The notes under the pieces were generated by a model, which had not been told where the DNA came from, did no database searches, and saw only the letters and a list, made by a program, of their open reading frames with translations. The translations under genes and the position numbers were made by a program. A stretch of DNA of 64,000 nt from Bacteroidota bacterium (GTDB taxonomy: Bacteria; Bacteroidota; Bacteroidia; 2-12-FULL-35-15): the NCBI GenBank assembly GCA_025963715.1, contig JAOQAG010000026.1:80327-144326 (forward strand), in the 5' to 3' direction. Of this stretch, positions 10,720 to 64,000 are shown piece after piece (position 1 is the stretch's first letter; every line of letters begins with the position of its first letter).

Positions 10720-11718
10720 ATGAAAAAACTATACTTATTCCTGATATTCAATTGTTTTATAGCTGTGGTATTTGCACAGGCCCCGCAGGGTTTTAATTAC
10801 CAGGCAGTAGCGCGTGATGCTTCCGGCGTGGCTTTAATCAATCAATCCGTTGGCCTGCAAATAAGTCTGTTACAGGGCAGCGCTACAGGAACAGCCGTTT
10901 ATACCGAAACACATACTCTTACTTCCAGCAACATTGGGTTATTAAACCTGACGATTGGTAACGGAACACCGGTTACAGGCACGTTCAGCAGCATTAATTG
11001 GGCGGCAGGCCCTTATTTTGTTGAGATCAGCATGGATGTTACCGGCGGAACAAGTTATGTGCTGATGGGAACACAACAATTAATGAGCGTACCTTATGCA
11101 TTATTTGCTGCCAACAGTGCCAGCGGAGTTGCAGGAGCAACAGGTGCTACCGGAAACGATGGCGCAACCGGAGCAACAGGCCCAATGGGACCAATGGGCA
11201 TGGGGATGCCAGGCATGCCTGGTAGTAATGGAGCAACAGGAGTTACAGGTGCAACAGGAAATACAGGTACTACAGGAGTTGTAGGAACTACAGGTGTTAC
11301 AGGCGCCACAGGAACTACCGGGGCAACAGGAGTTGCAGGAGTAACCGGTGTAACGGGAACAACAGGAGCTACCGGTGCAACACCAGCTTTTGCTGTTCAG
11401 TTCAATTTAGTGGATAACGGTTCGTTTTCAGCATGGCTGATCGGAAACACTTCCGATTATGTTTCCGGATCCAACTCAAATCCTACACTTACGCTGTACC
11501 GCGGCTTTACTTATTATTTTAATGTAACGATAAGCGGGCACCCTTTCCGGATTGCTTCTACCGCCGCATTCCCGGGAACTCCTTTTAACACAGGCGTTAC
11601 CAACCAGGATGCACAAGGCAGCATACTTATTTTTAAAGTACCGATGGACGCACCTTCCACATTGTATTATCACTGTATTTTTCACAGTGGCATGACCGGC
11701 GTGATCAATATTCTATAA
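10720..11718 (+). CDS. Secreted collagen-like (Gly-X-Y repeat) protein with a C-terminal cupredoxin (amicyanin/plastocyanin-like blue-copper) domain
   Basis: Signal peptide. ~115-aa N-domain shared with the next gene. ~80 uninterrupted G-X-Y triplets ([39 protein letters not shown]...). C-terminal ~110 aa with GHPFRI and [16 protein letters not shown], i.e. His...Cys-x2-His-x2-Met, very close to amicyanin MPHNVHF...YDYHCTPHPFMRGKVVV. Confidence 0.8.
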
Positions 11719-11745
11719 TTAAAATCCTCTAATAAAAAACCGTAC

Positions 11746-13734
11746 ATGAAAAAATTACTTCTACTCCTCCTCTTAAATGGACTTATCATTAATTCATTTG
11801 CACAGGCCCCACAGGGCTTTAACTACCAGGCCGTGGCACGCGATGCTTCCGGTGTGGCGCTTACCAACCAGGCCATTGGCTTACAGATCAGCCTCCGCCA
11901 GGGAACTGCCAGCGGAACCATCGTATATACCGAAACACATGCACTTACTTCCAACAATCTTGGATTATTAAATTTAGTAGTGGGAAACGGAACTCCCGTA
12001 ACCGGCACTTTTAATAGCATCGACTGGGCTGCCGGGTCTTACTTCATTGAAATAAGCATGGATGTAACCGGCGGAACAAGTTATGTGCTGATGGGAACAC
12101 AACAATTAATGAGTGTGCCATACGCATTATATGCAGCAAATGCGGGTAGTTCTGCTGGTGCTACAGGTGCAACTGGAATTACGGGCGCAACAGGAAATAA
12201 CGGAGCAGACGGCGCAACGGGCGCTACAGGAATAGCCGGAGCTACAGGAATGAATGGAACAGATGGTGCCACAGGAAATACAGGCCTTGCCGGAACTACA
12301 GGAGCAACAGGAAACGATGGTGCAACCGGGCCAATGGGCCCAATGGGGATGGGAATGCCAGGCATGCCTGGTAGCAATGGAGCTACCGGTACAACTGGTA
12401 TAACAGGAGCTACCGGAGCAGGAGTTGCAGGAACTACAGGGGCTACAGGAACAACAGGAGCAAATGGAACCACTGGTGCAACAGGTATTACCGGAGCGAC
12501 AGGCGCTGGAGTTGCTGGAACAACCGGTGTAACAGGTACAACAGGTGTGAGTGGAACCACTGGCGCAACAGGTATTACCGGGGCGACAGGTGCAGGTGTA
12601 GCCGGAACAACCGGTGTAACAGGTACAACAGGTGTGAGTGGAACCACTGGGGCTACAGGTATAACAGGAGCTACCGGGGCAGGAGTTGCAGGGGCTGCCG
12701 GAGTAACAGGAACTACAGGAGCAAATGGAACCACTGGGGCTACAGGTATAACAGGAGCAACAGGAACGGGAATTACTGGAGCAACAGGAACTACAGGTAC
12801 GAATGGGAATACTGGTGCAATTGGTATCACAGGAGCTACGGGTGTAGGAATTGCCGGAACTACAGGAGTAACCGGCGCTACAGGTGCGAATGGAACTACC
12901 GGTACTACAGGAGTTTCCGGAACAACGGGTGCAACAGGTATCGGTTACGGCGGCACTTCCAATTCACCAAAAACGCTGGGCACAGGCCCAGGAAAAACAT
13001 ATAGTACACAAGCCGGCCTTGCTTATATCGCAGGAGAGCGCATCAGGTTTGTTGACCAGACAACTTCAACTAACTTTATGGAAGGAACCATTGTTTCTTA
13101 CATTGGCACTACTATAGTCGCTAACATCGATAATGCGGGGGGAGCATTAGGAACAATAGTAAATAACTGGAACCTTAGTGTGGGAGGAAATTTAGGGACT
13201 ACGGGTGTAACGGGTTCAACCGGAGTTGTGGGAAGTGCAGGCGCCACAGGGATTACCGGAGCAACCGGAACCGGAGTTGCCGGAGCGACAGGCTCAACAG
13301 GCGCTACAGGCCCTGCCGGAAGTGCATCCTCCGAATATGCTTACATCTATAATACATCCGCACAATTTGTAACTTTAGGCCAAGCCGTTACATTTGATAC
13401 CAACGGGCCTCTTTCAGCTAACATTACACATAACCCCGGAGTTTCCTATATTTTTATAAATGTATCGGGAGTTTATAAAATTGAATTCTCAGTTTCCGGT
13501 GTTCAAACCAATCAATTCTCCATTTATCAGAATGGCGCATCTGTTGCTGGTGCCAGGTACGGTGCTGCTACCGGGACTACGCAAACTACCGGATTCGTGA
13601 TCATTAATGTTGTTGCAGGTGATGTGATCCAGTTAAACAATACCGGCTCGCCCGGCAGTACAAACCTGTCGGCAAACACAGGCGGGTCACTGGCTGCTGT
13701 AAATGCTTCTATCCTGATCACAAAATTAAATTAA
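11746..13734 (+). CDS. Secreted collagen-like (Gly-X-Y repeat) protein with a C-terminal BclA/C1q-like jelly-roll domain
   Basis: The N-domain is ~85% identical to the previous gene. Long G-X-Y tracts with 27-aa perfect repeats. The C-terminus (…[18 protein letters not shown]...[47 protein letters not shown]) resembles the BclA C-terminal / C1q-TNF fold. Confidence 0.75.
12480..12730. repeat. Near-perfect 81-bp tandem repeats within the collagen-like gene (27-aa [29 protein letters not shown] units)
   Basis: ggaacaaccggtgtaacaggtacaacaggtgtgagtggaaccactgg occurs at 12517-12563 and again exactly 81 bp later at 12598-12644, with further degenerate copies on both sides. Confidence 0.8.
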
Positions 13735-13793: not shown

Positions 13794-13934
13794 GCCACAG
13801 ATGCACAGATTAAAAAAACAATAAAAAATTGCACAAATTCTTTCAAAATCGCAATGCGATTTTTTTTTCTGTGTAATTTAATCTTAATAAAAAAATCTGT
13901 GAATCTGTGGCATTCCCTTTTACACAAAGCAAAC

Positions 13935-14030
13935 ACACAGATTGGTATATTAGTAAAAATTGGTATTTAGTAGATTTAAATCCGCCTCATCCGCGTTCCA
14001 TCACACAGATTCGTAGTTTGGTTCCTGTTC
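13935..14030. repeat. Repeat family E (cacacagattggtatattagtaaaaattggtatttagtagat) followed by a family D-like module
   Basis: Family E copies also at 20197-20235 and 23508-23553. The D-like part is catcacacagattcgtagtttggttcctgttcgctatctgcac. Confidence 0.6.
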
Positions 14031-14064
14031 GCTATCTGCACCTAAATTTTCGTATTTTTGCAGC

Positions 14065-14628: not shown

Positions 14629-15040
14629 TCCCTTCCAAAATATTGATTTTACTACCCTTTTCAGCATACACCAACCCGAAACAGCACTACTTCTAATTGT
14701 GCATTTTTTTCGATTACTGCAAATTTTTTGGAGGATTATTTTTAGTTTTTTTTCCAGTTTTCTTAAACTGCTGTTTTCTAACACATTGGTCAATTTTCAA
14801 CATTCGTCTGTTAATTCTCCGTGTTTATAACTTCGGGCAAATGTTAATTCAATACACTTGACTAGCCAGTTTTTTTTCCAAACATTTGTAGACCACAATT
14901 TCAATAAGCAATACTTTATTAATTAGCTCAAAAAGAAAGAGATAGCCTTTCAGGGGAATTTTTCCCTCTAATTTTAAGGGTTAAGAAATTGTAACGATTT
15001 GAATACCAAAAGATTACACCAGTTTTAAGAGAATATATAA

Positions 15041-16006
15041 ATGGAAGAGCCAATTTTAAAAGAAAATAAAGACCGTTTTGTTTTATTCCCCATAAAACAC
15101 AATGAGATTTGGGAAATGTACAAAAAAGCGGAAGCGAGTTTTTGGACTGCCGAAGAAATTGACCTCGGCCCGGATTTGACTGATTGGGAAAATAAACTGA
15201 ATGATGACGAGAAACATTTCATTAAACATGTGCTTGCTTTTTTTGCTGCAAGCGATGGAATTGTAAATGAAAACCTGGCGATCAATTTCATGAACGAAGT
15301 ACAATATCCGGAAGCACGCTGTTTTTACGGCTTCCAGATCATGATGGAAAATATCCATTCCGAAACCTACTCGTTACTGATCGACACCTACATCAAAGAT
15401 CCGAAAGAAAAAGATATGCTTTTGCACTCCATAGATACATTGCCATGTGTTGGAAAAAAAGCAGACTGGGCACTTAAATGGATCGGTAACGGAACATTTG
15501 CTGAACGTTTAATTGCTTTTGCTGCTGTGGAAGGCATTTTCTTCTCCGGAAGCTTTTGCTCCCTGTTCTGGTTAAAAAAACGCGGATTAATGCCGGGATT
15601 GACCTTCTCTAACGAGCTTATCTCCCGCGATGAAGGATTACATTGCGATTTTGCCTGTTTGCTGTACGCACAGCTTACCAACAAACTGCCAAAAGAAAAA
15701 GTAACCGACATCATTACCAATGCCGTGATGATCGAAAAAGATTTTGTTTCCGATGCATTACCGGTAAGACTCATCGGGATGAACTCCGATATGATGTGCC
15801 AGTACATCGAGTTTGTTGCAGATAGATTGCTCGTAGCACTCGGTTGCCCGAAAGCATACAACGCTACCAACCCTTTCGATTTTATGGAACTGATCTCCCT
15901 GCAGGGAAAAACCAATTTCTTCGAAAAACGCGTGGCAGAATACCAAAAAGCCGGTGTTACCGGAAATAAAGAAGACAATACTTTCAGCCTCGATGCTGAT
16001 TTTTAA
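15041..16006 (+). CDS. nrdB: Ribonucleoside-diphosphate reductase beta subunit (class Ia R2)
   Basis: 321 aa. Di-iron ligand regions (…[12 protein letters not shown]…, [29 protein letters not shown]) and the C-terminal tail are typical of NrdB/R2. Confidence 0.9.
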
Positions 16007-19207: not shown

Positions 19208-19246
19208 TAAATTATGCATTCTACTAGTCAAATTACTTAGTGATTC

Positions 19247-19324
19247 ACACAGATTCGTAATTTCGTTCCTGTTCGTTATCCGTACAGCAAACTTTAAACT
19301 TTCCAACTTTGAACTTTGAACTCT
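19247..19324. repeat. Family D module directly abutting a family C AACTTT array
   Basis: cacacagattcgtaatttcgttcctgttcgttatccgtac followed by agcaaactttaaactttccaactttgaactttgaact. The same D+C juxtaposition occurs at 8259-8299/8550-8588 and 31810-31885. Confidence 0.7.
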
Positions 19325-19325
19325 T

Positions 19326-20021
19326 TTAAATCTTCACCGCCAACCCCGCTGCAAAAATATAAGGCCCGCCGTAACCAATTCCCACTTCGGCATTAAAGCC
19401 GATCATTCCATTAAAATAATAATTGAGACCAAAATGCGCCTGCAGGCTCACCGGTGATGGCGTTACATTCAGGCGTGAAGTATAAGTCGGATCATATTGG
19501 GTAGTGGTGGATGTCATTGTATAGTGATTATACCCGATTTTTATTCCTGTATACAAGCTGAGATTCTTTTTGGCAATGATATGATAATCGCCTTTTACTG
19601 CAAAATGGATGCGTTTCCAGGAGTCGGTGCTGGTTATAATATCCGACATTCCGGTATTATTGTTATACTGGTAAGCGCCTAAAATCATTTTTGCCGTTTG
19701 ATACCCGAACGCTACACCGGCAGAAAATTTATCTGACAGTCCGTAATCTACACCCAAATTAAACATAGGCGATTCTTTCGGTTGTATTGATTCGTAATTT
19801 TCGTTGCTCCAGACGCTGCTCAACTGGTACTTTAGCGCCAGGGCAGGCCCCATTAGGTTGAAACCTACACCACCGCTGAACATTATTTTTCCTTTTATTC
19901 CGTCATCACCGGAATCCGTTTTTTTAGTTTGTAAATTCAGATCGGTAAAATTTCCTGCGATCAGGTTAGAGCTTTGTGCGGCTAAAAATAATCCGATGGT
20001 AAGCAATGTGATTTTTTTCAT
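19326..20021 (-). CDS. Outer-membrane beta-barrel protein (OmpW/porin-like family), hypothetical
   Basis: Signal peptide. 231 aa. Alternating aromatic/hydrophobic beta-strand pattern. C-terminal ...AGLAVKI. Confidence 0.55.
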   Translation of the reverse strand: MKKITLLTIGLFLAAQSSNLIAGNFTDLNLQTKKTDSGDDGIKGKIMFSGGVGFNLMGPALALKYQLSSVWSNENYESIQPKESPMFNLGVDYGLSDKFSAGVAFGYQTAKMILGAYQYNNNTGMSDIITSTDSWKRIHFAVKGDYHIIAKKNLSLYTGIKIGYNHYTMTSTTTQYDPTYTSRLNVTPSPVSLQAHFGLNYYFNGMIGFNAEVGIGYGGPYIFAAGLAVKI

Positions 20022-20107: not shown

Positions 20108-20235
20108 CGCAGAGAGCGCAAAGAAGGCGCAAAGCACACAGAGGTTTTTTCACACACAGATGCGTACATTCGTACTTATTTGTAATTCGTAATCACACAG
20201 ATTAGTATATTCGTACCTATTGGTATTTAGTAGAT
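20108..20235. repeat. Composite repeat: inverted family F (cgcagagagcgcaaagaaggcgcaaag) plus family E (cacacagattagtatattcgtacctattggtatttagtagat) ending at the rlmF start codon
   Basis: Direct comparison with 5349-5400, 13935-13978 and 23508-23553. Confidence 0.6.
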
Positions 20236-22062: not shown

Positions 22063-23124
22063 ATGACTATTCCTGAAGTTGCCAAACTCCGTTTGATCAA
22101 TCAGCAACTTGCTGCACCCACATTTACTGATCCCGCAAAGCTTGTTTCGTACCTGGGCGCCGTGCAGGCACAGGATTATGCAGGTTCAAAATGGGCGCTC
22201 GGGTTACGCTTAAAAAACAGCAGCGAGATTGCAATTGAAAAAGCCATCAACGATGGAAAAATTATCCGTACACACCTCTTGCGTCCTACCTGGCATTACG
22301 TTGCTGCCGCAGATATTAAATGGATGCTGCAGCTGAGCGCCCCGCGTGTAAATGCATTCAACAGATCCATGTACCGCAAGCACGGGCTGGATGATGCCAT
22401 CTTTAAAAAGACAAATAAAATTCTCATAAAAACATTACAGGGAAACAAACACTTAACACGAACAGAAATTGCAATTGCATTACAGGATGCTAAAATTGTA
22501 ACGGATGAATTACGCCTGATCCTGTTATTAATGCATGCCGAATTAGACGGTATTATTTGCAACGGCATCAAGCAGGAAAAACAATTTACCTACACGCTGC
22601 TGGACGAACGTGTACCCGGAAGCAATCTAATTAAAGGCGATGAAGCATTGGCCGAACTGGCAAAAAAATATTTTATCAGTCGCGGACCGGCAACAGTGCA
22701 GGATTTTATCTGGTGGTCGGGATTAAGTGTTGCCGATGCAAAAAAAGCGGTTGAGATCATTAAACCTGCATTGGTTTCCGAAATAATCGACAGCAAAATC
22801 TATTGGATGAAAAAAGGAATTTCCGTTGTAAACGAAAAATTGACTCGCCCGCAATTGCTTCCTGCATTTGACGAATACACGATCGCTTACAAAGACCGAA
22901 GCGCTGCACTTGATCCGAAACATGCAAAACAAACCGGCAACGGGATTTTTAGTCCACAATTAATTATCGATGGAAAGGTTTCCGGAACCTGGAAACGTAC
23001 ATTAAAAAAAGACAAAGTAAACGTAGAGATCAATCCGTTTATAAAATTAACTAAGGCTCAACAAATGGCGATTGACAAGGAGATTGAGCGTTATGCCGAT
23101 TTTTTAGGATTGACTGCTTTTTAA
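22063..23124 (+). CDS. Winged-helix DNA-binding protein of the YcaQ/AlkZ-like (DUF1006) family, a putative crosslink-repair DNA glycosylase
   Basis: 353 aa. N-terminal ...LRLINQQLAAPTFTDPAKLVSYLGAVQAQDYAGSKWALGLRL... is typical of the YcaQ family. Confidence 0.65.
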   Translation: MTIPEVAKLRLINQQLAAPTFTDPAKLVSYLGAVQAQDYAGSKWALGLRLKNSSEIAIEKAINDGKIIRTHLLRPTWHYVAAADIKWMLQLSAPRVNAFNRSMYRKHGLDDAIFKKTNKILIKTLQGNKHLTRTEIAIALQDAKIVTDELRLILLLMHAELDGIICNGIKQEKQFTYTLLDERVPGSNLIKGDEALAELAKKYFISRGPATVQDFIWWSGLSVADAKKAVEIIKPALVSEIIDSKIYWMKKGISVVNEKLTRPQLLPAFDEYTIAYKDRSAALDPKHAKQTGNGIFSPQLIIDGKVSGTWKRTLKKDKVNVEINPFIKLTKAQQMAIDKEIERYADFLGLTAF

Positions 23125-23126
23125 AA

Positions 23127-23273
23127 ACACACCCCTGGCCCCTCTCAAGAGGGGAATTGATCCTGCTTAATTTAGAAATTATAGTATTAAAGAAAATTAT
23201 CAAAATGATGATGTGTTTATCCTTTTGTGCAGGATGATTCCATTCCCCTCTTGAGAGGGGCCAGGGGTGTGTT
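23127..23273. repeat. MITE-like element: two inverted copies of the 40-bp family B repeat (…CAATTCCCCTCTTGAGAGGGGCCAGGGGTGTGT) flanking ~60 bp of AT-rich DNA
   Basis: Left arm acacacccctggcccctctcaagaggggaattgatcctgc. Right arm gcaggatgattccattcccctcttgagaggggccaggggtgtgtt. It starts 3 nt after the YcaQ-like stop codon. Confidence 0.7.
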
Positions 23274-23456
23274 CAGCATTTAGCAACACACAGATTCGTA
23301 ATATTCTTATTAATTAATAATTAGCAAATACACACAGCATATTACACCCAACTCTTTTGTGTTCTTTTGTTTCTTATGTGGTTGAATTTTTCTTTTTTTA
23401 CAGCGATTAATTTTCATTTTAAGCTTGTCGAAGAACATTCTGTTCATTATTATAAA

Positions 23457-23553
23457 ACACACCCCTGGCCCCTCTTGAGAGGGGAATTGACGCTGCTTAC
23501 ATTTTTAATTGATACACAGATTAGTATATTAGTAAAAAATAAGTATTTAGTAG
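23457..23553. repeat. Solo family B repeat (23457-23496) plus a family E module (23508-23553)
   Basis: acacacccctggcccctcttgagaggggaattgacgctgc, then gatacacagattagtatattagtaaaaaataagtatttagtagat. Confidence 0.65.
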
Positions 23554-23556
23554 ATG

Positions 23557-27117: not shown

Positions 27118-27319
27118 CCCAATACAATTTAAAAGTACAAATAATGGTTATACAAAGCGTCCGCTAAATTCATCACCTCCACTCTTTCCTCTATCAGCGC
27201 TTCCGCGATGCTTGTCTTAAAAGGCGACACACAGCCTTGCGGAATTGCGCCTTTGCCAGGAAAAGCATACGGCTTGCGGGAAAATATACACAGAATATCA
27301 CACACAGCATTTAAAAAAC

Positions 27320-27365
27320 CTCTGCGAACACTGCGCCTTCTCCGCGCTCTTTGCGGTTAAACACA
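27320..27365. repeat. Family F repeat (ctctgcgaacactgcgccttctccgcgctctttgcggttaaacaca)
   Basis: Collinear with 5349-5400 and 30250-30300. Confidence 0.6.
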
Positions 27366-30196: not shown

Positions 30197-30320
30197 GTTC
30201 TCTGCGCCTCTGCGAGAAATAAATACACAGCACCGCGAAAAACAGCATAGTCCTTCGCGAACTTTGCGTCTTCTCCCCGCCCTTTGCGGTTAAAAACACA
30301 CAGCATCACACAGCAAACCA
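30197..30320. repeat. Family F repeat cluster (ctctgcgcctctgcg...ccttcgcgaactttgcgtcttctccccgccctttgcggttaaaaacacacagc)
   Basis: Shares the ctttgcggttaaa(a)acaca core and gcgaac..tgcg. upstream part with 5349-5400 and 27320-27365. Confidence 0.6.
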
Positions 30321-31443: not shown

Positions 31444-31540
31444 GATTTTGGATTTTGTTATTAAGGATTAAGGATTGGTGCTGCCCCTGAAACGTTTAAA
31501 TGCTAAAAAATTATTATTTAGAATTTAAATCTTAAAGTGT

Positions 31541-31885
31541 GCAGGATCAATTCCCCTCTTGAGAGGGGCCAGGGGTGTGTTCTGCGAGAAGCATAACAAC
31601 TATTAAACTTAAATAAAAGCATCATCATAAAATTAACCGTCATCCCGCACGTGTTGCGGGATCGGTTATTTAAAAGCAGTTCAACATTTGTATTAATTTG
31701 TAGCCAGTAGATGTAACATTTTAAAAAAATTACGTTATCCTCTTAAAACAGCATCTGCGTGCAGCAAACTTTAAACTTTTGAACTTTAAACTTTGAACTA
31801 ATTTTTAGCAAATCCACAGATTCGTTCCTGTTCGTTATCCGTATAGTAAACTTTTGAACTTTAAACTTTGAACTTTGAACTTATT
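31541..31885. repeat. Dense composite repeat region: family B copy, a CCCGCACGTG..GCGGGA palindrome variant, two family C arrays and a family D module
   Basis: gcaggatcaattcccctcttgagaggggccaggggtgtgtt (31541-81). aaccgtcatcccgcacgtgttgcgggatcggtt (31636-68). gcagcaaactttaaacttttgaactttaaactttgaact (31763-800). atccacagattcgttcctgttcgttatccgtatagtaaacttttgaactttaaactttgaactttgaactt (31810-85). Confidence 0.7.
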
Positions 31886-31889
31886 TATA

Positions 31890-40427: not shown

Positions 40428-40469
40428 AAGCGGATTTCGGAAGTTCAAATTCGGAAGTGTGTGAACCGG

Positions 40470-40505
40470 CTCAATTCCCCTCTTGAGAGGGGCTAGGGGT
40501 GTGTT
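40470..40505. repeat. Solo family B repeat (ctcaattcccctcttgagaggggctaggggtgtgtt)
   Basis: Fifth copy of the CCCCTCTTGAGAGGGG-containing 40-mer. Confidence 0.65.
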
Positions 40506-40530
40506 TTGAATTTCAATAGCGTGACAAAGC

Positions 40531-54345: not shown

Positions 54346-56552
54346 TTAGATCTTAATTCCGATAACGAGCACATCATCCACCTGCTCGATGGTTCCGCGC
54401 CAGTTTTCAAACAGATCGTAAAGGTCTTGTTTTTGTTTTTCAGGTGAATGAACTGATCCATTCAATAAAGTTTCCTTAAAGTTTTTGCTCATCAATTTTT
54501 TTCCCTTGTCGCCCCCGAACTGATCGGAAAAGCCATCGGTAAATGTGTACACCCTATCGCCTTTTTGCAGTTGAACGGTTTGAAGCCGGAACGGTTTTAA
54601 TTCGCCCTGGTGTATACCCACAGGAAATTTATCGGCTTTATATTCGATCACTTCGTCGTTGCGGATGATGATGAGCGGATTATTTGCGGCAGCAAACTGC
54701 AGTATCAATGAATCAAAATCAAAGAGGCACAATACGGCATCCATTCCGTCTCTTGCTGTGTTATCGGTTCCATCGGGATTTAACGCTTTGATAATTTCTG
54801 TGCGCACTTCCCGGAAGATCAGATCGGGTTGTGTAATTCTGCGTTCGTTCACGGTTTCGTTGAGCTTGGAAATATTGAGCAAACTCATGAATGCCCCGGG
54901 AACACCATGCCCGGTACAATCGCAGGTGGCCAATAAAAATTTATTATCAGTTGTTTTTTGCGCCCAGTAAAAATCGCCGCTAACAATGTCCTTCGGTTTA
55001 TACAGCACAAAATGTTCGGGCAGGTTATTTTTTAATGTATTCGCGGAAGCGAGCAATGCACCCTGGATACGCTTTGCATAATGAATGGAATCGAGGATCT
55101 CTTTGTTTTTTTCTTCGATGATTTCTTTCTGTTGTGTGATCTCGATGTTTGCTTTTTTCTTTTCGCGGTAACGCCTGAACGAAATAAAGGCAAGCACCAA
55201 TACGAGCAGTAAACCTGCAATGGCGGTGTAATTAACAATGCGCTGGCGCACAATTTTTGCATCTTTTAATTCCTGATCTTTCGTAAGAATGTCGATCTCA
55301 TTTTGTTTTTTATCAGCATCGTACATGGCCTGCATTTGGCCAATACGCTTATTGATGGCATCGTTGTTAAGTGAATCGGAAAGCTCCTGTATTTTTTTCT
55401 GATATAAAAATGCATTTTCATAATCTTTGGAAGCGGAATAAACAGTTGCAAGCGTGGTATAGCTGTTCTTCAACTCGTCCATATCACCGGAATCCTTGCT
55501 GAGCGCTAATCCTTTCAGAGCTGATTCTTTGGCTTGTGCATATTTTCCCTGCAGGGTATAAATGTCTGCAATAGACATATAACAGCGGGATGCGTAATCG
55601 TTATTTTGGCCTTTTAGTGCGGCATTAAGCGCCACAGTTTCGTATTGAAGGGCTTTATCATATTCTTTTTTACTGGTATAAACGATCCCAATATTGTGCA
55701 ATACCATAAAGGTGGAAGGTTCCATCCCGATTGTTTTGTACAGCCGTAAGGATTGATTATAGAATTCCAATGCACGATCCAGGTTTTTCAATTCCCTGTT
55801 AACAATGCCAAGATTATTATATATGTTGGCAAGCATCTCATCTCTTTTTGCGGTTTTAAAAATACCGAGTGCTTTTAAATAATATTCTTCGGCCAATTTA
55901 TTTTGTGCCTGATCCTGGTATACCTGCCCGATATTGACATAGATATAACCGTCCTGTACATTGTCTTTGAGCTGCTTATTGGCCTGGAGCGCATCAAATA
56001 AATAATCGAGTGATTTGCTGTAATCACTCAGATTCTGATAGACGACTGCTAAATTTGTTTGTGCTGTAATTTCGGCGGCGTATAAATTGGTTTCTTTTGC
56101 TTTCTCGATGCCGATCTTATAGTAGCGTTCAGCCTTTGCATAATCTGCCATATCGAGGTACACGTTGGCAAGGTTGATGTATGTTTTTGCCTGCCCGGCG
56201 GTTTGTCCAAGCTGGATGCGGATCTGCAGGTTCTTTTTAAAATAACCGATGGCCTTATCAAAATTCCCGGAACTCCTGTTGATGATGCCAAACAAGCTGT
56301 ATGCAGAGCAATACCTTCGGTATAATTTATTTTTTGAGCAAGGGATAATGCATCTCCTGCGTATTTTTCGGATAGCTGCAGGTCGGAGTACGAATACTCC
56401 CAGCCAATATCGATCATGGTATTGATGCGCGCCGTATCCTGTGTTTCTGCCTTGAGCACGTGCAGCAAACTATCCACTACTTGTGCATTGGCAATGTGCA
56501 TACAGAAGAAGGTGAATAAAATAAATCCTGTTTTTTTAGCGACGTTTTTCAA
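54346..56552 (-). pseudogene. TPR-repeat / TM / SpoIIE(PP2C) phosphatase gene interrupted by a 1-nt frameshift near 56296-56310; pseudogene or sequencing error
   Basis: The N-terminal 83 codons (signal peptide plus first TPR, ORF 56552-56304) are in one frame. The rest (54346-56295: TPRs, TM helix, SpoIIE domain with CDCTGHGVPGAFMS) is in the +2 frame. Both parts are collinear with the intact paralogue at 61296-63416. Confidence 0.6.
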
Positions 56553-56641: not shown

Positions 56642-59600
56642 TTATTGTTGCGCTAACAGGGTAACGTGTCCCGTGTAATCGTGCAATCGCTGTTCGAAAT
56701 CACGCACGGTTATTTTGTAAACATAAACGCCATTTTCGGAGATCTTGCTGCCGTTCTTTACAGTTCCGTTCCAACCGTTCTTTATATCGTTGGTTTGGAA
56801 GATCAATTCGCCCCAGCGATCAAAGATCATCATTTTAAATTCGGAGATCTGGTCGCCTTTGGCTGTAAAATAATCGTTGGTACCGTTTTCATCCGGCGTA
56901 AACGCGTTTGGAATGTACAGTGTAAACAATGGTTTTATTTGTACGACCTCCGAAACCGAATCGAGGCAACCGGCGCTGCTGGCGGTAAAAAGTTTTACTT
57001 TGTAATCACCTTGCTGCGCATACGTATGCTCCGGATCATTATCGGTGGATGTGGCACCATCGCCAAAATCCCATTGATACGTAGCTGCATTCACCGAGAT
57101 ATTATTGAATTTATACACAGGGCTGATAGTTGTTCCATCCATTGCTTCCGATGTAAATTGTGCCAGGGAACCGGCATTAACAGTTACATTGTTTGCCACG
57201 CTTGCCGTATTCACACATCCGAAAAGCGACGTAACAATTACTGTAACATTATACACGCCGGTGGTGGTGTAGCCATGAACGGGGCTTGCAATACTGGCTG
57301 TGGCGCCATCGCCAAAATCCCAATTGTAAGCAGCACCTGTGTTGGTGGGAGAATGATCTGTAAAATTCAATTGCACTTCTTTACAACCAACTGCAGCCTG
57401 GGGCACTATATCGATCACCGGCAAAGGGTTTACTGTGACCGGAACAGATCCGGTCACTGCATTTCCACATGCATCGGTAACGGTAACAATATAGTTGGTT
57501 GAATTGGCCGGAGAAACTGTGAACGGCCCGTTTCCGCCGCCAAGACTATTGCTCCAGCTGACGGTAACCGGGCCGGTTTGCCCGGCTACGGCCGAACCAA
57601 TAACTGCAGCATTTCCATAACAGATGGCTGTAGCACCTGTAACGGTAAGGTTTGCAGCAGTTAAAGAAGTAACTGTAATGGCAAGTGTTGCTGTGTTGCT
57701 GGTGCAGCCGTTTGCATCGGTTGCTGTAACATTGTACACGGAAGAGCTAACCGGGCTAACGGTTTGCGTTGCGCCCGCTCCTACTCCGGTCCAGTTGTAG
57801 GAATATCCGGGATTACCGCCGGAAGCTGCCGCTGCGATGGTTGTGTTTTGTCCGAGGCAAATGGTGGTGCCGCCTGTTGCAGTAACCACAACCGGTGCAG
57901 GTTGTGTAACTGCCAGTGTTGAGCTGGCGCTGCAACCATTTGCATCGGTTACATTGATGGTGTATGTACCCGGGCACAAGCCGTTTGCAGCCGGGCTGGT
58001 ACCGCCATCGGGCAACCATTGATAGGAGTAAGAGGGTGAACCACCTGCGGGAATAACAACGGTTTGTCCGTTACAGGCACCGTTACAGGTGACAGGAAAT
58101 GCCGCTGTTGAGAGTGTTAAAGCAGGTGGTTCTGTGATGGTCACAAACGATGTGGCGATACAACTATTCGCATCTGTGACGGTTACAAAATAATTTCCGG
58201 GAGCCAATGCGTTTACAGATTGTGTACTTGTGGCCGGGCTGGTGGTCCAGTTATAACTGTATGCTCCGGTTCCGCCGGATGCACCCACGGTTGCAAATCC
58301 ATCGGCGAGGCCGTTACAAGTTACATTGTGAACGATCATGGCATTGGCATTTAATGCGGCAGGCTGTGTGATTGTAATGCCTGTTACGGCAGCATTACAG
58401 CCGTTTGCATCGGTAATTGTTGCCGTATAATTTGCTGCATTTAAATTGGTTGCCGTAGGCGTGATTTGCACCGGCGTTGTATTCCACGCGTACGTGTATG
58501 GAGCTGTACCACCTGTAGTGGCAATGCTTGCAGAACCATTGGCTGATCCATTGCAGGAAACATTTACCTGCGAAGTGGAATAAGTTATTGGCGCAAGCGG
58601 TTGTGTAATGCTTACTGAACTGTTGGTAACGCAGCCATTGCCGGTAGTTACAGAAAAGTTGTATGTGCCGGGAGTCAGGCTGGTAATGGATGATGTGGTA
58701 GCACCGTTTGACCAGTGATAAATATACGGTGCTAATCCACCTGTAACGTTTGCAGTAGCAACACCTGTTCCTGCTCCAAAACAGCTTACGTTGGTAGAAT
58801 TGATGACAACATTTGCAGGCGCTGCACCGCTTGCTACTAGTATACTTGCAGAGCCTGTGCAGCCACCGGAACCTGTTACGTTAATGGTATAAATACCTGC
58901 GGCAAGCGTTCCCGCCGTGATGCCGGTTCCGCCGGAAGGCAGCCATTGGTAGGTATAAGGGCCACTTCCTGAAAGAATTTGAACAGTGGCTGTACCATTG
59001 GATGCGTTGCAATTATCGGGGGTTGAAACGGTATTTAAGATGACGCCTGTGACGCTGATGCAAAATGAAAATGTTTGACTTCCGTTAAAAGGACAATTAT
59101 CATCGCGGACGGTAACGGTAAAACAATTGGATGCGTTACCGATATCGGTGATGGATGGTGTCCAGCTGAAAGTACCGGTTGGACGGGCGCCACCGCTGGA
59201 AGTAAATGTTCCGGCTGCGATACCGCTGTTCCAGGTAATGGTTACATTTTGAGTAGAATCAAGATCATAGGTTGGTATATTAAAATTGATAGGTACGCCT
59301 GCGCAGGCGGTTAATGAATATTGACCGGAGTTGTTAATGCCGTTCACATACGGATTATTGTTGGTGCAGGTCATGGTTCGCAATTGAATATCGCGCATGA
59401 CGCTGCCGACAAGAACTTCCTGGCGCCATTCTTTTACGAGAACTGTAAATACGGTTACTTCTAATTGTGTTGGTGTCATGCACATATCACCGGTTAAGGG
59501 ATTGAATGCAACTGCGGGCGAAGAGAGTAATGGTTGTGTTGCAGAATAGGGTGCAATGTAAGAAACGGTTGAAGTAGCACTGGTTTCGGGCGTAATGAGT

Positions 59601-60208
59601 GTATAGGATAATGAGTCGCCATCAATATCGGATGAACCGTTGTTAAAACAATACGGCTGGCCGATACAGACAAAGGGGATTGGCGGATTAGAAAATGTGG
59701 GAGAGCTGTTGCAGGGGAAATCCAGGTTATTTAAGAATGCTTCGATGTACATGTTTTCGGACGATGGGTTGAGGATGGTTCCGATGGATGTATTACGGCA
59801 GCAGATGCTGAAACTAAAATGCCAGTCGCTGCAGGCCATGGGTAACGTAGTAACTCCTGTGTATTTATATTCCTGTACGCCGGGATAAACACCTCCGGCA
59901 CAAACTGAGGTTAGTGATGAACAGATGGGGGATACATCCGTTCCGGTTCCGGGAATTTGATTGAGCGTAAGGTCGAAGTTTGGTCCGCAGGAAGCAGACG
60001 AAATATTTATGGTAACAGTATTGGGAGCGGCAACTCCCGCACAGTCGCGGTAGAAGGAGAGATTGATGCGGTATTGATTTCCGCCGAGGCATTGGTAAGT
60101 GATATCTGCGCTTTGAGCATGTGATGCAAAGGCCTCATTTTGTGATTGGATAAACATTAAAATGAAACTGATCCAAAAGAAAACTTTGTGTTTTAAATGC
60201 GTATTCAT
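56642..60208 (-). CDS. Large secreted adhesin-like protein with SprB repeats and PKD domains, ending in a T9SS type-B C-terminal domain (gliding-motility-associated CTD)
   Basis: 1188 aa. Signal peptide. Cys-rich N-domain. ~8 SprB-type repeats (…PYTYQWLPSGGTG…GIYTINVTGSGGCTGSA…). Two PKD-like segments (YNWDFGDGAT…, YQWDFGDGAT…). C-terminus LYIPNAFTPDENGTNDYF…IFDRWGELIF…GVYVYKI…GHVTLLAQQ. Confidence 0.85.
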   Translation of the reverse strand: MNTHLKHKVFFWISFILMFIQSQNEAFASHAQSADITYQCLGGNQYRINLSFYRDCAGVAAPNTVTINISSASCGPNFDLTLNQIPGTGTDVSPICSSLTSVCAGGVYPGVQEYKYTGVTTLPMACSDWHFSFSICCRNTSIGTILNPSSENMYIEAFLNNLDFPCNSSPTFSNPPIPFVCIGQPYCFNNGSSDIDGDSLSYTLITPETSATSTVSYIAPYSATQPLLSSPAVAFNPLTGDMCMTPTQLEVTVFTVLVKEWRQEVLVGSVMRDIQLRTMTCTNNNPYVNGINNSGQYSLTACAGVPINFNIPTYDLDSTQNVTITWNSGIAAGTFTSSGGARPTGTFSWTPSITDIGNASNCFTVTVRDDNCPFNGSQTFSFCISVTGVILNTVSTPDNCNASNGTATVQILSGSGPYTYQWLPSGGTGITAGTLAAGIYTINVTGSGGCTGSASILVASGAAPANVVINSTNVSCFGAGTGVATANVTGGLAPYIYHWSNGATTSSITSLTPGTYNFSVTTGNGCVTNSSVSITQPLAPITYSTSQVNVSCNGSANGSASIATTGGTAPYTYAWNTTPVQITPTATNLNAANYTATITDANGCNAAVTGITITQPAALNANAMIVHNVTCNGLADGFATVGASGGTGAYSYNWTTSPATSTQSVNALAPGNYFVTVTDANSCIATSFVTITEPPALTLSTAAFPVTCNGACNGQTVVIPAGGSPSYSYQWLPDGGTSPAANGLCPGTYTINVTDANGCSASSTLAVTQPAPVVVTATGGTTICLGQNTTIAAAASGGNPGYSYNWTGVGAGATQTVSPVSSSVYNVTATDANGCTSNTATLAITVTSLTAANLTVTGATAICYGNAAVIGSAVAGQTGPVTVSWSNSLGGGNGPFTVSPANSTNYIVTVTDACGNAVTGSVPVTVNPLPVIDIVPQAAVGCKEVQLNFTDHSPTNTGAAYNWDFGDGATASIASPVHGYTTTGVYNVTVIVTSLFGCVNTASVANNVTVNAGSLAQFTSEAMDGTTISPVYKFNNISVNAATYQWDFGDGATSTDNDPEHTYAQQGDYKVKLFTASSAGCLDSVSEVVQIKPLFTLYIPNAFTPDENGTNDYFTAKGDQISEFKMMIFDRWGELIFQTNDIKNGWNGTVKNGSKISENGVYVYKITVRDFEQRLHDYTGHVTLLAQQ

Positions 60209-60431
60209 AACACACCTCCTGTTTCTTTAAAAGCGTTTAACAATAAATTAAGAACTGAGTGGTTTAACGCCTCAATAAAACAAAGGGTTACAGAAATGAG
60301 GATAAAAGTGGTGGATTTTATTTTGGGAGAGATGAAATTGAGGAATGAATGGATGAAAGGGGAGGGTTTAAAATAGGCCGCAGACAAGGAAAAAAAGAAA
60401 TAGGCAAAGGGCAGTTGGCAGTAGACAAAAA

Positions 60432-61279
60432 TAATTTGAATGAATTTATCTTCTAACTTTTTGAAGGCAAAATTTACAATCCCGCACGTGCGGGACGACC
60501 TTGTAAGGTAATTTCTTCTTCCGCTATCGCTCAGAAGAACCGCGGATAAATAATCGCCAGTACACGTCATTCTTAATTTGATAAAATTAAATGTTACTTT
60601 TCTCAATATTGATCACGGGGCGATTTTTTACCGCTATTACTGAAGAAGGCCAAAAGCGCCAACCCGGGTAAGTATTTTTTTTAATAATGATTGCTGTGCC
60701 GTGGGTTTACAGTGCGTGATAACGCACATAAACGAAATGATAAATTTGGACTATGATCAGATCATAACAAAATCATAAGTCGCCACAGGCGATCTTTTTT
60801 ACATCGTAAAAATCATTTTTGATCTGCGTTCCAATACACAGCATTTAAATGCAGATTACTATTCATTTTTTCTTCTAACTTTTTGGCGGCCAAAAAGTAA
60901 CAATCCCGCACGTGCGGGACGATCTTGTAATGCAATTTCTTCTTCCGCTAACGCTCAGAAGAACCGCGGTGAATGATCGCCAATTAATTCTCGGTATTGA
61001 TTGGATACATGCGAAAACATTTTTTTGTTTCTGGAATATTCGTCCGGCGATCTTTCCCGCTATTGCTGCACAAGATCAAAAACGTCAACCCGGGTGAACA
61101 TTGTTTTTAATAATGATTGCAGTTCTGCGGGTTTACAGTGCGTGATAACGCACATAAACTAAATGATAAATTTGGACTATGATCAAATCATAACAAAATC
61201 ATAAGTCGCCACAGGCAATCTCTTTGAGCATCATAAAAATCATGTTTGATCTGCGTTCCGATACACAGCATGGAACGTT
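60432..61279 (+). repeat. Two tandem copies (60432-60855, 60856-61279) of a ~424-bp noncoding element, with a third, inverted copy at 1030-1440
   Basis: Collinear, ~85-90% identical units. Each holds a CCCGCACGTGCGGG palindrome, ttcttcttccgct..cgctcagaagaacc, a GTGCGTGATAACGCAC hairpin, a -7-like TAAATTTG (60741-48; 61167-74), a TATGATC-a-GATCATA hairpin, and a TCGCC-aca-GGCGA + TCTTTTTT terminator (intact in copy B at 60780-60800, decayed in copy C). Confidence 0.8.
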
Positions 61280-61295: not shown

Positions 61296-63416
61296 TTAAA
61301 CGCGGACGCCGATCACAACTACATCGTCGATTTGTTCCAATCCGCCTTTCCAGGTATCGAATGCATTTTCGATGACGTTGCGTTGTTCTTCAACCGGGAG
61401 CTGAGCTACATCCAGCAGCAATTCTTTGAGCTTGTTGTATTTGAATTTTTTCCCTTTGGAACCGCCAAACTGATCGGCATAACCATCGCTGTATAAATAA
61501 ATGCAATCGCCTTTTTGAAGCTGAATGGTGTGGTTGGTGTATTCATCCACTTTGTCATCAATGTTGACCCCGATCGGAAATTTATCGGCTTTTATTTCTT
61601 TTAAAATTCCATTGCTTACATAATACAAGGAATTAAATGCACCTGCATATTGCAGCTCTAATGTTTTTTTGTTGAGTGAACAAAGCGAAAGATCCATTCC
61701 GTCCTTCACTCCTTTTCCTTCTTCCGACTGGCGCAATGTTTTGGTAACGCCTGCATCAAGGTGTTTTAAGATCTCGGATGGTTTTACCAAATTGACTTCA
61801 TTGATGGCTTGTGTCAATAAATTAAACCCGACCACACTCATTAAGGCTCCGGGTACACCGTGGCCGGTACAATCAACGGCGGCAAAACATACGATGTCGT
61901 TTTTTTGTTCGATCCAGTAAAAATCGCCGCTGACAATATCCTTTGGCCGGTAAAAAATAAAGCTGTCGGGTAATAATTTATTCCATGTTTCAGTTGGCGG
62001 AAGAATGGATTCCTGGATGCGTTTCGCGTAATTAATACTGTCGGTGATCTCTTTTTTCTGTTGCGTGATCTCGGTATTGCGATGCTCCAGTAACTGATTT
62101 GTTTTTTGCTTTAAGCGGGAACGGTTGTAAAACAAAATAGCGATCGCGAAGATCAATAAAATGGCAATACCCAATACACTCATCCACAATTTAAATTCAG
62201 TACGGTTTTTTGTGATCTGCAACGACTGGATCTCTCCATTTTTATTCAGTAATTCAATTTCCTTTTGTTTTTTATCACTTTCGTATTTTGTTTGCATTTC
62301 ATTCAGCTGCTGTGAAGTTGCCACATTGAGGATCGAATCTTTTACCTGGATCAGCAGGTTTTGATATTCGTATGCTTTTTCATAATTTTTTTGTGCGGCA
62401 TAGATCAATGCCAGCGCTTCGTAGCCATTCCTGATCAGGTCTTTTGTACCCATCTTCTTAGACATCTCCAGCGCCTTGTTGATATTCTCGATTCCCTGCG
62501 CGTATAATTTGCGGTTGTAATAATTTGTACCCAGACTGTAAAGACTGATGCACAAATTATAATTATCTTTCATGTTCTCTCTCAGCTTCAGCGCTTCTAC
62601 AAAATAAGGAAATGCCTTATCGTAAAGATGCTCCGCTTCGTACACATTACCAATGTTATTTAATGTAAGCGATTCTCCGGTAATGTCATTATTCGCTTTT
62701 CTTACTTCGAGCGCTTTTGAATAATATTCCAAACTTTTTTCATAATCGCCTTTGAGCTTGTACACCATGGCAATGTTGTGCAGCGAATTTCCAACACCTT
62801 TTTTATTACCTACTTCTTCCTTTATTTTCATGGAACGATTGTAATACTCAAGCGCCTGATCGTACTGGTTTAAATTTTTATAGATCAGTCCTACATTGTT
62901 CAATGTGCTCGCGAGCTGCCATTTATTTCCGCCCGCTTCTTCGGAAAGTTTCAGGGCTTTGAGATAATAACCAAGCGCTTTCTGATAATCCGCTCTGTCG
63001 TCGTAAACTAAGCCAATGTTGTTAAGCGTTTTTGCTAATTTTTCTTTGTTGTGCGTTTTTGTTGCCAGGTCAAATGATTTTGCATATAGTGCTAACGCCT
63101 GATCATAATGCGCCTGGTAATATTGTGCAAGCCCAAGCAGCAGGTACGAGCTCATTTCTTCGACTGTATCATTTAATTTGATGGCCTGGCCCAGGGCCTG
63201 GTTTGCATATTGTGTTGCTTTATCGGGAGCATCGGAAGTATACTCGGATGCGATCACATTGAGGATGCGGATACGTGTGGTATCAACGGTAACAGTAGGT
63301 AATAATTTTTGGAGGCTGTCGATTATTTTATCTGACTTTTGCGCAGCGGAAGGTGTGCTCCAAAGAAGAACCGTGCAAATAAAAAATAATAAATAGTTGT
63401 ATTTATTCCGCATCAT
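61296..63416 (-). CDS. TPR-repeat / single TM / SpoIIE-family (PP2C) protein phosphatase
   Basis: 706 aa. Signal peptide. ~8 TPRs. TM helix (WMSVLGIAILLIFAIAILFY). C-terminal PP2C/SpoIIE domain with DCTGHGVPGALMS and the …DGYADQFGG… aspartates. Confidence 0.85.
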   Translation of the reverse strand: MMRNKYNYLLFFICTVLLWSTPSAAQKSDKIIDSLQKLLPTVTVDTTRIRILNVIASEYTSDAPDKATQYANQALGQAIKLNDTVEEMSSYLLLGLAQYYQAHYDQALALYAKSFDLATKTHNKEKLAKTLNNIGLVYDDRADYQKALGYYLKALKLSEEAGGNKWQLASTLNNVGLIYKNLNQYDQALEYYNRSMKIKEEVGNKKGVGNSLHNIAMVYKLKGDYEKSLEYYSKALEVRKANNDITGESLTLNNIGNVYEAEHLYDKAFPYFVEALKLRENMKDNYNLCISLYSLGTNYYNRKLYAQGIENINKALEMSKKMGTKDLIRNGYEALALIYAAQKNYEKAYEYQNLLIQVKDSILNVATSQQLNEMQTKYESDKKQKEIELLNKNGEIQSLQITKNRTEFKLWMSVLGIAILLIFAIAILFYNRSRLKQKTNQLLEHRNTEITQQKKEITDSINYAKRIQESILPPTETWNKLLPDSFIFYRPKDIVSGDFYWIEQKNDIVCFAAVDCTGHGVPGALMSVVGFNLLTQAINEVNLVKPSEILKHLDAGVTKTLRQSEEGKGVKDGMDLSLCSLNKKTLELQYAGAFNSLYYVSNGILKEIKADKFPIGVNIDDKVDEYTNHTIQLQKGDCIYLYSDGYADQFGGSKGKKFKYNKLKELLLDVAQLPVEEQRNVIENAFDTWKGGLEQIDDVVVIGVRV

Positions 63417-64000
63417 ATTTTTATTCCTATTACTAAAATATCATCTACCTGCTCTGCATTTCCCTGCCATTTTTCGATCGCCGTTTTTAATGTATCGCCT
63501 TGTTGCTCCATTGGCTGATCCTGAATTTGCATGAGCAAGTCCTGGAAACGTTTTACCATGAATTTTTTTCCTTTTTCACCGCCAAACTGATCGGCATAAC
63601 CATCGGTTGACATATAAATACAATCACCTTTGAGTATTTTAATTTCGTTATTAATAAATTTCCGTTCCGATTCCTGATCGCCTCCGATCGGTGATTTCGT
63701 TGGCTTGATCTCCTCCAGCACATTATTCCTGACAAGGTACAAGGGCCGGTTGGCACCTGCAAATTCCAGGATCCCGTTTGGCAGGTCAATCGAGCAAAGC
63801 GCAATATCCATCCCGTCATGTGTTTCTGTTTGTTCAAGATCCTGCTTTAACGATTGACGTACACGTTCGTGTAACAAATTTAATACATCTGATGGTTTCC
63901 TGATGCCTTTTTCGTTCACAATTTCATTCAAAATCGTGTTTCCGATCATGCTCATAAAAGCTCCGGGTACACCGTGACCGGTACAATCCACGCAGGCAAT
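63413..64000 (-). CDS. SpoIIE-family (PP2C) phosphatase domain protein, 3' portion; the gene continues beyond the window end
   Basis: The frame is open to the window edge (…IACVDCTGHGVPGAFMSMIGN…). The PP2C domain is homologous to the two neighbours. The stop overlaps the start of the next gene by 4 nt (ATGA). Confidence 0.8.
   Translation of the reverse strand: MACVDCTGHGVPGAFMSMIGNTILNEIVNEKGIRKPSDVLNLLHERVRQSLKQDLEQTETHDGMDIALCSIDLPNGILEFAGANRPLYLVRNNVLEEIKPTKSPIGGDQESERKFINNEIKILKGDCIYMSTDGYADQFGGEKGKKFMVKRFQDLLMQIQDQPMEQQGDTLKTAIEKWQGNAEQVDDILVIGIKI

Follow-up and report, generated by a model that had tools for sequence, protein, structure and literature searches.

Three copies of a structured non-coding repeat in a Bacteroidota genome, probably members of a dispersed and modular family

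Copies of the unit inside and outside the window

The window analysed here is a stretch of 64,000 nucleotides (nt) from a Bacteroidota bacterium (GenBank assembly GCA_025963715.1, contig JAOQAG010000026.1), and it holds three copies of a unit of ~420-440 nt. Two of them, A and B, stand in tandem on the plus strand between a TPR-SpoIIE gene and a gene for a large SprB/PKD/CHU_C adhesin, and the third, C, lies inverted on the minus strand between the genes for an HrpB helicase and an M16 peptidase (Table 1). Our analysis suggests that they probably belong to a family of intergenic repeats with a modular build and a conserved fold in the core. The three copies of ~420 bases are real and beyond chance, and BLASTN and nhmmer agree on the places at which an earlier note on this DNA had put them. 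Copies A and B are 82.4% identical over 410 nt (E = 2e-110), A and C 82.2% over 382 nt (E = 3e-101), and B and C 75%, with E-values across the copy pairs from 1e-62 to 1e-110. The offset from A to B is 424-427 nt (repeat families D5, D14 and D18); Tandem Repeats Finder does not report the pair, because it consists of just two units that have diverged (82% identical). Searches of the 64-kb window with BLASTN, nhmmer and the covariance model found no fourth copy.

The copies do not encode a protein, as the earlier note had also held. No frame is open in all of them, which rules out a coding hypothesis for the repeat, and the longest open frame switches strand and frame from copy to copy. The peptide CTGDYLS.VLLS.SGRRNYLTR, which the note had pointed out, is indeed common to the translations of A and C, and illustrates how the repeat yields spurious open reading frames (ORFs) that share a peptide. 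The comparison with Rfam that the note proposed returned no family: Rfam 15 gave zero matches in the window at the gathering threshold and sub-threshold noise alone at E up to 10, and six loci searched at gathering and permissive thresholds gave only noise as well. BLASTN against phages and plasmids left the element unmatched.

Outside the window, we scanned metagenome contigs with a 20-base invariant motif from hairpin P4 of the core and obtained 17 loci, of which 14 carry the element and three are chance matches inside GC-rich coding DNA. Among species-representative genomes, where the source lineage has no matching representative, the motif gave two chance matches (Brachybacterium and Anaerolineae); in viral contigs it had no match, and what occurs there is the GC palindrome by itself, which has no relation to the element. 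The covariance model recognizes ~21 cores in total, a count drawn from genome fragments and contigs, and the family is found in at least four sequence sets other than the window genome. The assembly OLLL01, which represents a sister genome, contributes nine cores from 8 loci and 7 contigs; its contig 233 is colinear with both window ends at 84-90% DNA identity. Within OLLL01, L008 corresponds as ortholog to the C locus and L017 to the A/B locus, and the element is present at both. The remaining metagenome copies are from Ga0247741 and Ga0164241. By its homologs, the M16 peptidase next to C assigns the source to uncultured Bacteroidota, in metagenome-assembled genomes recorded as Bacteroidota, Bacteroidia or Chitinophagaceae bacterium. 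We also took the syntenic region, ~20 kb each, from six more distant relatives and searched it with the covariance model, which found a sole copy: a diverged core in the Bacteroidota metagenome-assembled genome GCA_029237775.1 (L027, 15181-15356), away from the spacer between the HrpB and M16 genes. That spacer measures 94-222 nt in the six (L027, L028, L029, L031, L032 and L034) and is element-free. The distribution is patchy and restricted to a lineage, with the element at both orthologous OLLL01 loci and missing from this spacer in the more distant relatives.

Two matches of ~20 bits, at 23127-23269 of the window and 15012-15148 of L027, were set aside, since they fall on other hairpin repeats. 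The L027 core is flanked on both sides (15012-15148 and 15530-15600) by one such repeat, GGAGAGGAGCGAAGrATTGGTTCTGGCTTGAACTTTTGCTTCTTTTCTTTTAAGAGAAAAGAAG, which forms long hairpins and is the source of the sub-threshold microRNA-like noise in Rfam.

The neighbours of the copies are unrelated housekeeping genes, among them groEL, DUF4835/recN, ribH, ispF and genes for a redoxin, an extracytoplasmic function (ECF) sigma factor, a beta-lactamase-fold protein and an MFS transporter. Where both flanking genes are known, seven pairs are co-directional, three convergent and none divergent, so that each copy lies behind the end of one gene or more. Relative to the upstream gene the element points either way, and in L012, copy B and L022 it starts 13-22 nt past a stop codon in one orientation or the other. 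Tandem arrays are frequent (L015, L016, L017 and L019); fragments occur at L007, L015 and L020, and short forms without helix halves are seen in L019_2 and L015_2.

A modular unit with a conserved core fold

When all intergenic regions are compared in one orientation, the family proves to be modular. A 5' core of ~180-250 nt is present at every locus and runs from TCTTCT(T)ACTTTTTG to ...ACAAGAyCAAAAG, with a more weakly conserved tail that extends to ...TTTTTAAT..TGATTG. The 3' module of ~150 nt is loosely constrained and is confined to the window and OLLL01 copies, being absent from all copies in Ga0247741, Ga0164241 and L027. It contains hairpins, an ATTTG box, a hairpin followed by a T-run and a well-conserved terminal block, ATCATAAAAATCATTTTTGATCTGCGTTCCGATACACAG, beyond which it is not conserved across the family. 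Its segment of two hairpins and a terminator, in which the earlier note had seen a possible small RNA (sRNA), is cleanly deleted in L016 and in L017_2, the positional ortholog of B (57 nt of B's 3' module are missing there), and is degenerate in L008, L007 and L022. Between the C locus and L008, whole 3' modules have been deleted on either side of an intact core. Judging from these comparisons, the candidate sRNA falls where the unit is least constrained.

Five helices make up the core fold: the hairpins P1 and P2, the latter variable, and P3, a long-range helix that closes a three-way junction with a hairpin P4 and a long stem P5. P1 is formed by ACTTTTTGG/CCAAAAAGT; for P2, the window, L015 and L019 have TCCCGCACGTGCGGGA and the other copies AAAAGCCTTTT. 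The strands of P3, aTCTTGTAAkGyAAT / ATTrCTGnACAAGAt, are ~130-150 nt apart and include a conserved internal loop, while P4 is TTCTTCT/AGAAGAA. P5, which is GCGG(t)GAATGATCGCC / GGCGATCATTC-CCGC, includes a bulge that is conserved and, distally, a variable insert of 35-65 nt. The minimum free energy structure of copy B alone reproduces P1-P5 on both strands, with z-scores of -3.66 and -4.02, and none of 200 shuffles was as stable.

Support for this fold comes from compensatory change, counted on MAFFT alignments made from sequence only. In alignment A4 (19 copies), 93.6% of cells are paired, compared with 89.2% in shuffles; 10 pairs have changed on both sides, a number reached by 1 of 500 shuffles, and the covariation score is 0.127 versus 0.067. 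Alignment A5, with 17 copies including L027, has 90.3% of cells paired and 17 pairs changed on both sides versus 7.7 in shuffles (0 of 500 reached this), with a covariation score of 0.184 versus 0.093. Related sequences can outscore shuffles without any structure; the pair-counting measures had a false-positive rate of 0-1% in the tool's own trials, and slid controls, in which partners are moved by 1-3 columns and relatedness is preserved, leave 35-53% of cells paired (A5). Individual positions illustrate the pattern. At one position of P3, 8 copies have C-G, 6 have U-A and 1 has A-U; at one of P5, 10 have U-A and 6 have G-C. P1, scored separately, covaries as well: for one of its pairs 10 copies show U-A and 4 show C-G, and for a second 6 show A-U, 6 show U-A and 1 shows C-G. 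L027 keeps P3, P4 and P5 with mostly different letters, and in its P4 both sides differ in five of the seven pairs with no loss of pairing. The covariation and the slid controls together imply that it is in a single strand, most simply of RNA, that pairing matters. By this measure an RNA-level structure is real, in another part of the unit than the hairpin module singled out by the earlier note.

Which strand would be the RNA is too weakly marked to decide. Cells with G-U number 10 on the plus strand of A/B versus 18 on the complement, and at two positions the series G-C, A·C, A-U on the plus strand corresponds to a G-C, G-U, A-U path on the complement. A hint in the opposite direction comes from the first hairpin of the 3' module, which keeps its pairing through G-U on the plus strand. 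In single-sequence folds both strands of the core fold equally well.

The hairpins P1 and P2 vary in additional ways. Copy C carries a GC hairpin insert, GCCCGCCCGAACGAATGAATTCGTTCATTCGGGCGGGC, of 36-40 nt in the P1 loop (1397-1440), which has a counterpart in a different genome at L021 (14499-14540); the two inserts show compensatory differences, AATG/CATT vs ACTG/CAGT, and might be explained as a variable extension of the stem or as a nested mini-palindrome. P2 is specific to the genome: the three window copies all have a GC hairpin, and the nine from OLLL01 all have an A/T version. In each of the three window copies P2 is terminator-like on the gene-sense strand of the flanking genes. The tandem pair A/B fills the gap from the stop codon of the TPR-SpoIIE gene to the candidate adhesin promoter, and from this arrangement we infer that it probably acts as a double insulator or terminator against read-through from TPR-SpoIIE before that promoter.

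Sequence dynamics and the nature of the family

Comparison of the window genome with OLLL01 shows how the copies have changed relative to their surroundings. The 4-fold degenerate sites of the flanking genes are 63-76% identical and unconstrained spacer 68%. Core B is 87% identical to its ortholog L017_2, whereas core A and its positional ortholog L017_1 are at 67% and core C and its ortholog L008 at 63.5%; by comparison, cores A and C of the same genome are 84% identical, as are core B and the L008 core. These values define two subtypes, with exchange between loci after the split of OLLL01 and the window genome. Taken with the genome-specific P2 variant, this exchange indicates copy-to-copy recombination (gene conversion and concerted evolution). 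Because of gene conversion, the repeat misleads ortholog-based comparison of intergenic DNA.

We consider it rather probable that the element is a non-coding, modular, structured and interspersed intergenic repeat family of an uncultured Bacteroidota lineage, of the same kind as BOX, ERIC and bcr1. It is dispersed in multiple copies, intergenic and beside unrelated genes, non-coding, structured with compensatory changes, modular with tandem and truncated forms, and patchy, as repeats of this class are. The family has been undescribed until now, and the kind of element is already known. Among the sRNA, binding-site array and decaying mobile element between which the earlier note had left the choice, the last comes closest, as a repeat family.

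The family multiplies and becomes homogenized within genomes by tandem duplication and copy-to-copy recombination, loses modules by deletion as it decays, and occupies the 3' flanks of genes in either orientation. The element may be co-transcribed with its neighbours and fold as RNA, with the fold being the feature under selection, either since it is needed for propagation of the element or since it shapes the 3' ends of host transcripts.

Several observations weigh against such a repeat. Compared with shuffled sequence, neither the ends of the whole unit nor those of its core or 3' module align any better, so that terminal inverted repeats (TIRs), the hallmark of miniature inverted-repeat transposable elements, are lacking, and we see no target-site duplication (TSD). 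The direct repeat GTGTTT(T)ACTG that brackets the core of C is accounted for by a remnant of a deleted 3' module, and at the C/L008 locus, where we looked for an insertion with TSD, the differences are accounted for by deletions. Deletions likewise explain the differences between the window genome and OLLL01, which offer no unambiguous insertion polymorphism. No mobilizing enzyme was identified in the flanks of the copies, where genes for a transposase, reverse transcriptase or recombinase were sought, and so the means of spread is inferred. The terminator scan made no terminator-like call in the OLLL01 orthologs and L012, and termination therefore cannot be the general role of the family. Finally, a five-helix fold kept across genus-level divergence, with many compensatory changes on the way, implies more constraint than acts on most selfish repeats, and fits a functional RNA equally.

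Comparison with known repeats places the family most closely beside BOX. The BOX elements of Streptococcus pneumoniae, studied together with RUP and SPRITE, are modular, non-coding, transcribed and lineage-restricted, and have been judged parasitic (PMC3049150). Our family resembles them in being modular, non-coding, intergenic and interspersed, with variable modules, tandem sub-units, a predicted structure, a narrow lineage and slow turnover. It differs in belonging to another phylum, in having no sequence similarity to BOX, and in a three-way junction with a long-range helix instead of boxA-boxB(n)-boxC hairpins. BOX is co-transcribed with its neighbours (PMC3049150), as the present family may be. 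The bcr1 repeats of the Bacillus cereus group and ERIC of Enterobacteriaceae are intergenic elements of ~127-155 nt that are transcribed with their neighbours and in which compensatory changes keep an RNA structure (PMC3184786). Maintenance of structure by compensatory changes in an interspersed intergenic repeat is shared with our family. However, bcr1 and ERIC have TIRs and/or short flanking direct repeats, and they fold as one long hairpin or cruciform, whereas the present unit is multi-branched and larger (~250-430 nt). REP/BIME of E. coli and Pseudomonas form mosaic tandem clusters of extragenic hairpins without TIR or TSD and affect mRNA 3' ends (PMC3184786); they are similar to our family in being mosaic tandem hairpin repeats that lack TIR and TSD and lie between co-directional or convergent genes. 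REPs, however, are GC-rich palindromes of 20-40 nt whose copies number in the hundreds and which are linked to RAYT transposases, while the present unit is AT-rich (36-47% GC), ~10x longer and, in the sequence read, present in tens of copies at most. The Bacteroidota RNAs in Rfam (Flavo-1 and the Bacteroides sRNAs) come from the same phylum and are small and structured, some of them multi-copy, and none gave a gathering-threshold match in the window. A structured element supported by covariation is thus added to a phylum whose interspersed repeats and non-coding RNAs (ncRNAs) are poorly catalogued; its hosts are known from metagenomes only, and a covariance model is now available for annotating the family.

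A serious rival, not mutually exclusive with the repeat reading, is that the core is the gene of a trans-acting or protein-scaffolding structured ncRNA of ~200-250 nt from a multi-copy paralogous family. Tandem arrays would then be gene duplications, and the 3' module would supply flanking signals. We hold this tentatively, as a possibility. It would explain covariation in all five helices, retention of the structure in L027 with a different sequence, orthologous core B standing above the neutral level (87% versus ~65% at 4-fold sites of flanking genes), and the unpaired blocks that stay invariant: the loop of P4 and the junctions ACC(R)CGG and CUAUU. Independent genes would be expected to lie in random orientation to their neighbours, and the counts of G-U-compatible cells lean to one strand (18 versus 10). 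However, neither a promoter motif, on either strand, nor a terminator is conserved: the Bacteroidota -7 box TAnnTTTG occurs in A and B only, with no conserved box on either strand of the other copies; sigma-70-type promoter scans are at or below shuffle expectation; and at the 3' end the hairpin and T-run of the 3' module are lost in most copies, while the P2 type is limited to some genomes. Many copies are truncated or retain half a helix, one subtype has replaced the other at orthologous loci, and the same loci are element-free in close relatives. The P4 loop is lost in L027, and the strand signal is weak, both strands folding equally well.

With about the same reserve we raise a related idea, namely that the core may represent a new class of multi-copy RNA, ~200 nt long and built around a three-way junction, either with a cellular function or as the recognition structure of a mobile element. 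In the former case it might serve proteins as a scaffold or sponge, or act as a signal for 3'-end processing; in the latter, it might belong to a non-autonomous element that moves without TIRs or TSDs via a single-stranded intermediate. Should the fold prove to be a functional RNA, or to serve a new kind of mobile element as its handle, interest in it would extend further.

It is improbable that each unit is a gene for an sRNA of ~45 nt on the plus strand of A/B, started by TAAATTTG and ended by a GTCGCCACAGGCGAT hairpin with a T-run, the layout that the earlier note had proposed. Copy A fits it, with a canonical TAnnTTTG box and a terminator-like hairpin and T-run on the same strand. The interval 60752-60800, which the note had assigned to the second tandem copy, also lies in A, the first. 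The -7 box ascribed to every copy is found in A and B, and C has TGGATTTG in its place. A module ending in an intrinsic terminator holds true for A and fails in B, where the T-run is broken (GGCAATCTCTTTGAGC), and the only plus-strand terminator called in A/B is at 60779-60793, in A. The deletions and degeneration described above remove the module elsewhere, it is absent from all other members, and there is no match in Rfam. The ~45-nt sRNA is not a feature of the family.

We regard as very improbable a role at the DNA level, as an array of regulator binding sites for the adhesin gene or as an invertible promoter segment with inverted repeats. The many palindromes invite this idea (CACGTG-centred, ATGAT/ATCAT and CCCGGG; CCCGCACGTGCGGG, reported in the earlier note, is present in all three window copies), as does the place of A/B upstream of the large adhesin gene, and inverted repeats homogenized by recombination could mimic covariation. 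The element also adjoins groEL, recN, ribH, ispF and other genes, however, in either orientation, and its nested helices, three-way junction and conserved bulges are unlike a single flanking inverted-repeat pair. The letters of the palindromes change while pairing is kept, no recombinase gene occurs in any flank, and the candidate adhesin promoter and a 99%-conserved leader are outside the repeat.

That these are plain segmental duplications of neutral intergenic DNA in this genome only, as the adjacency of two of the three copies and a divergence of 18-25%, resembling that of old duplicates, might suggest, is exceedingly improbable and refuted by copies elsewhere in metagenomes (at least four other sequence sets), by covariation and by core conservation above the neutral level, so that the strain-restricted, non-covarying copies envisaged in the earlier note do not describe this family.

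Genes and other repeats around the copies

The earlier note had placed A and B in the promoter region of the adhesin gene. The pair begins 17 nt past the stop codon of TPR-SpoIIE. In the stretch from the repeats to the start codon of the adhesin gene, the sole consensus match to a Bacteroidota-type -7 box is TATTTTTG, and the pair lies upstream of it. The pair therefore forms the 3' flank of the upstream gene and not the adhesin promoter itself. A/B is not a promoter array, and a false lead is removed in that the adhesin gene is preceded by neither a tandem sRNA nor such an array.

Table 1. Positions of the repeat units, their parts and the neighbouring genes in the window
Feature	Position	Strand	Basis or remarks
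Repeat unit A (core and 3' module), subtype 1	60432-60855	+	nhmmer envelope, BLASTN
Repeat unit B (core and 3' module), subtype 2	60856-61279	+	nhmmer envelope 60854-61279
Repeat unit C (core and 3' module), subtype 1, extra 36-nt hairpin in P1 loop	~1017-1457	-	BLASTN, nhmmer envelope 1457-1017
Core of A	60450-60660		Covariance-model match 60485-60660, 144.5 bits
Core of A, helices	P1 ~60457-60473; P2 GC hairpin 60480-60495; P3 60499-60512 with 60636-60649; P4 60513-60539; P5 60542-60558 with 60619-60634		
Core of B	60870-61086		Covariance-model match 60909-61086, 172.5 bits
Core of B, helices	P1 60878-60898; P2 60904-60919; P3 60922-60936 with 61062-61076; P4 60937-60963; P5 60966-60981 with 61046-61060		
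Core of C	1210-1450	reverse complement of A/B	Covariance-model match 1210-1387 (-), 152.4 bits; P2 1375-1396
3' module of A	60700-60848	+	Hairpin 60712-60727; TAAATTTG 60741-60748; palindrome 60752-60766; hairpin and T-run 60779-60800; conserved terminal block 60802-60843
3' module of B	61125-61275	+	Hairpin 61138-61153; TAAATTTG 61167-61174; hairpin 61205-61219, broken T-run; terminal block ~61230-61270
P2 GC hairpin and T-rich tail of A	60496-60479	-	Terminator scan: GTCCCGCACGTGCGGGAT then TGTAAATTTT
P2 GC hairpin and T-rich tail of B	60920-60903	-	Terminator scan: GTCCCGCACGTGCGGGAT then TGTTACTTTT
P2 GC hairpin and T-rich tail of C	1375-1396	+	Terminator scan: GAATCCCGCACGTGCGGGATTC then TAAATTTTGC
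HrpB helicase C-terminus	83-775	+	Upstream neighbour of C
M16 peptidase gene	1672-3045	+	Other neighbour of C
SprB/PKD/CHU_C adhesin gene	56642-60208	-	Neighbour of A/B, which adjoin its start side
TPR-SpoIIE gene	61296-63416	-	Neighbour of A/B, which adjoin its stop
Candidate adhesin promoter, -7 box TATTTTTG, outside the repeat	60433-60426	-	Pattern search, consensus match alone

The 100 nt directly 5' of the adhesin start (60209-60308, minus strand as sense), which are outside the repeat, are 99% identical to OLLL01; the corresponding values are ~86% for neighbouring coding DNA and 68% for the next spacer. This leader ends in a strong Shine-Dalgarno-like sequence, AGGAGGTG, of a kind that is unusual in Bacteroidota, and from its conservation it could be a 5' leader of the adhesin gene or an element that regulates it. 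Around the adhesin gene there are three paralogs that encode TPR-SpoIIE (PP2C phosphatase) proteins, all on the minus strand (54346-56295, 61296-63416 and 63413-63991); they share repeat blocks at the DNA level (families D8, D10, D16 and D19), and the latter two appear to overlap by 4 nt. The TPR-SpoIIE protein has no public record.

Directly adjoining unit C is one copy (940-1006) of a 67-nt repeat that occurs again at 8353-8419, the two being 81% identical. It contains the hairpin ATCCCGGGyyTGACCCGGGAT, which is terminator-like on the minus strand at 989-969. The contig L003 (Logan SRR13312996_475338), which equals window 1576-5317 and is the sole public contig encoding exactly the M16 peptidase of the window, starts 96 nt upstream of the M16 gene, within the repeat-rich spacer beside C. 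The repeats probably break short-read assemblies of the source organism.

At least four further families of short interspersed intergenic repeats occur in the window, and the source lineage seems unusually rich in them. They comprise arrays of the word AAACTTTAAACTTTGAACT (8526-8592, 19262-19328 and 31739-31887); blocks of CACACAGATTCGTA...GTTCCTGTTCG (13931-14041, 19245-19285, 20150-20235, 23510-23554 and 31804-31844); a hairpin element, CCCCTCTTGAGAGGGG, in both orientations (23121-23198, 23239-23290, 23454-23510, 31509-31598 and 40460-40522); and blocks of CTTTGCG...GCGGTTAAACACA (5351-5397, 27319-27365 and 30252-30298). Word-like arrays akin to those of the window also flank the element at related loci.

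Elsewhere in the window, two adjacent ORFs of 332 and 662 amino acids (10720-13734) consist largely of GGNxxxxxx repeats with a 9-nt period, which gives them a collagen-like G-X-Y look, and the syntenic gene in relatives is annotated as Collagen plus BclA_C.

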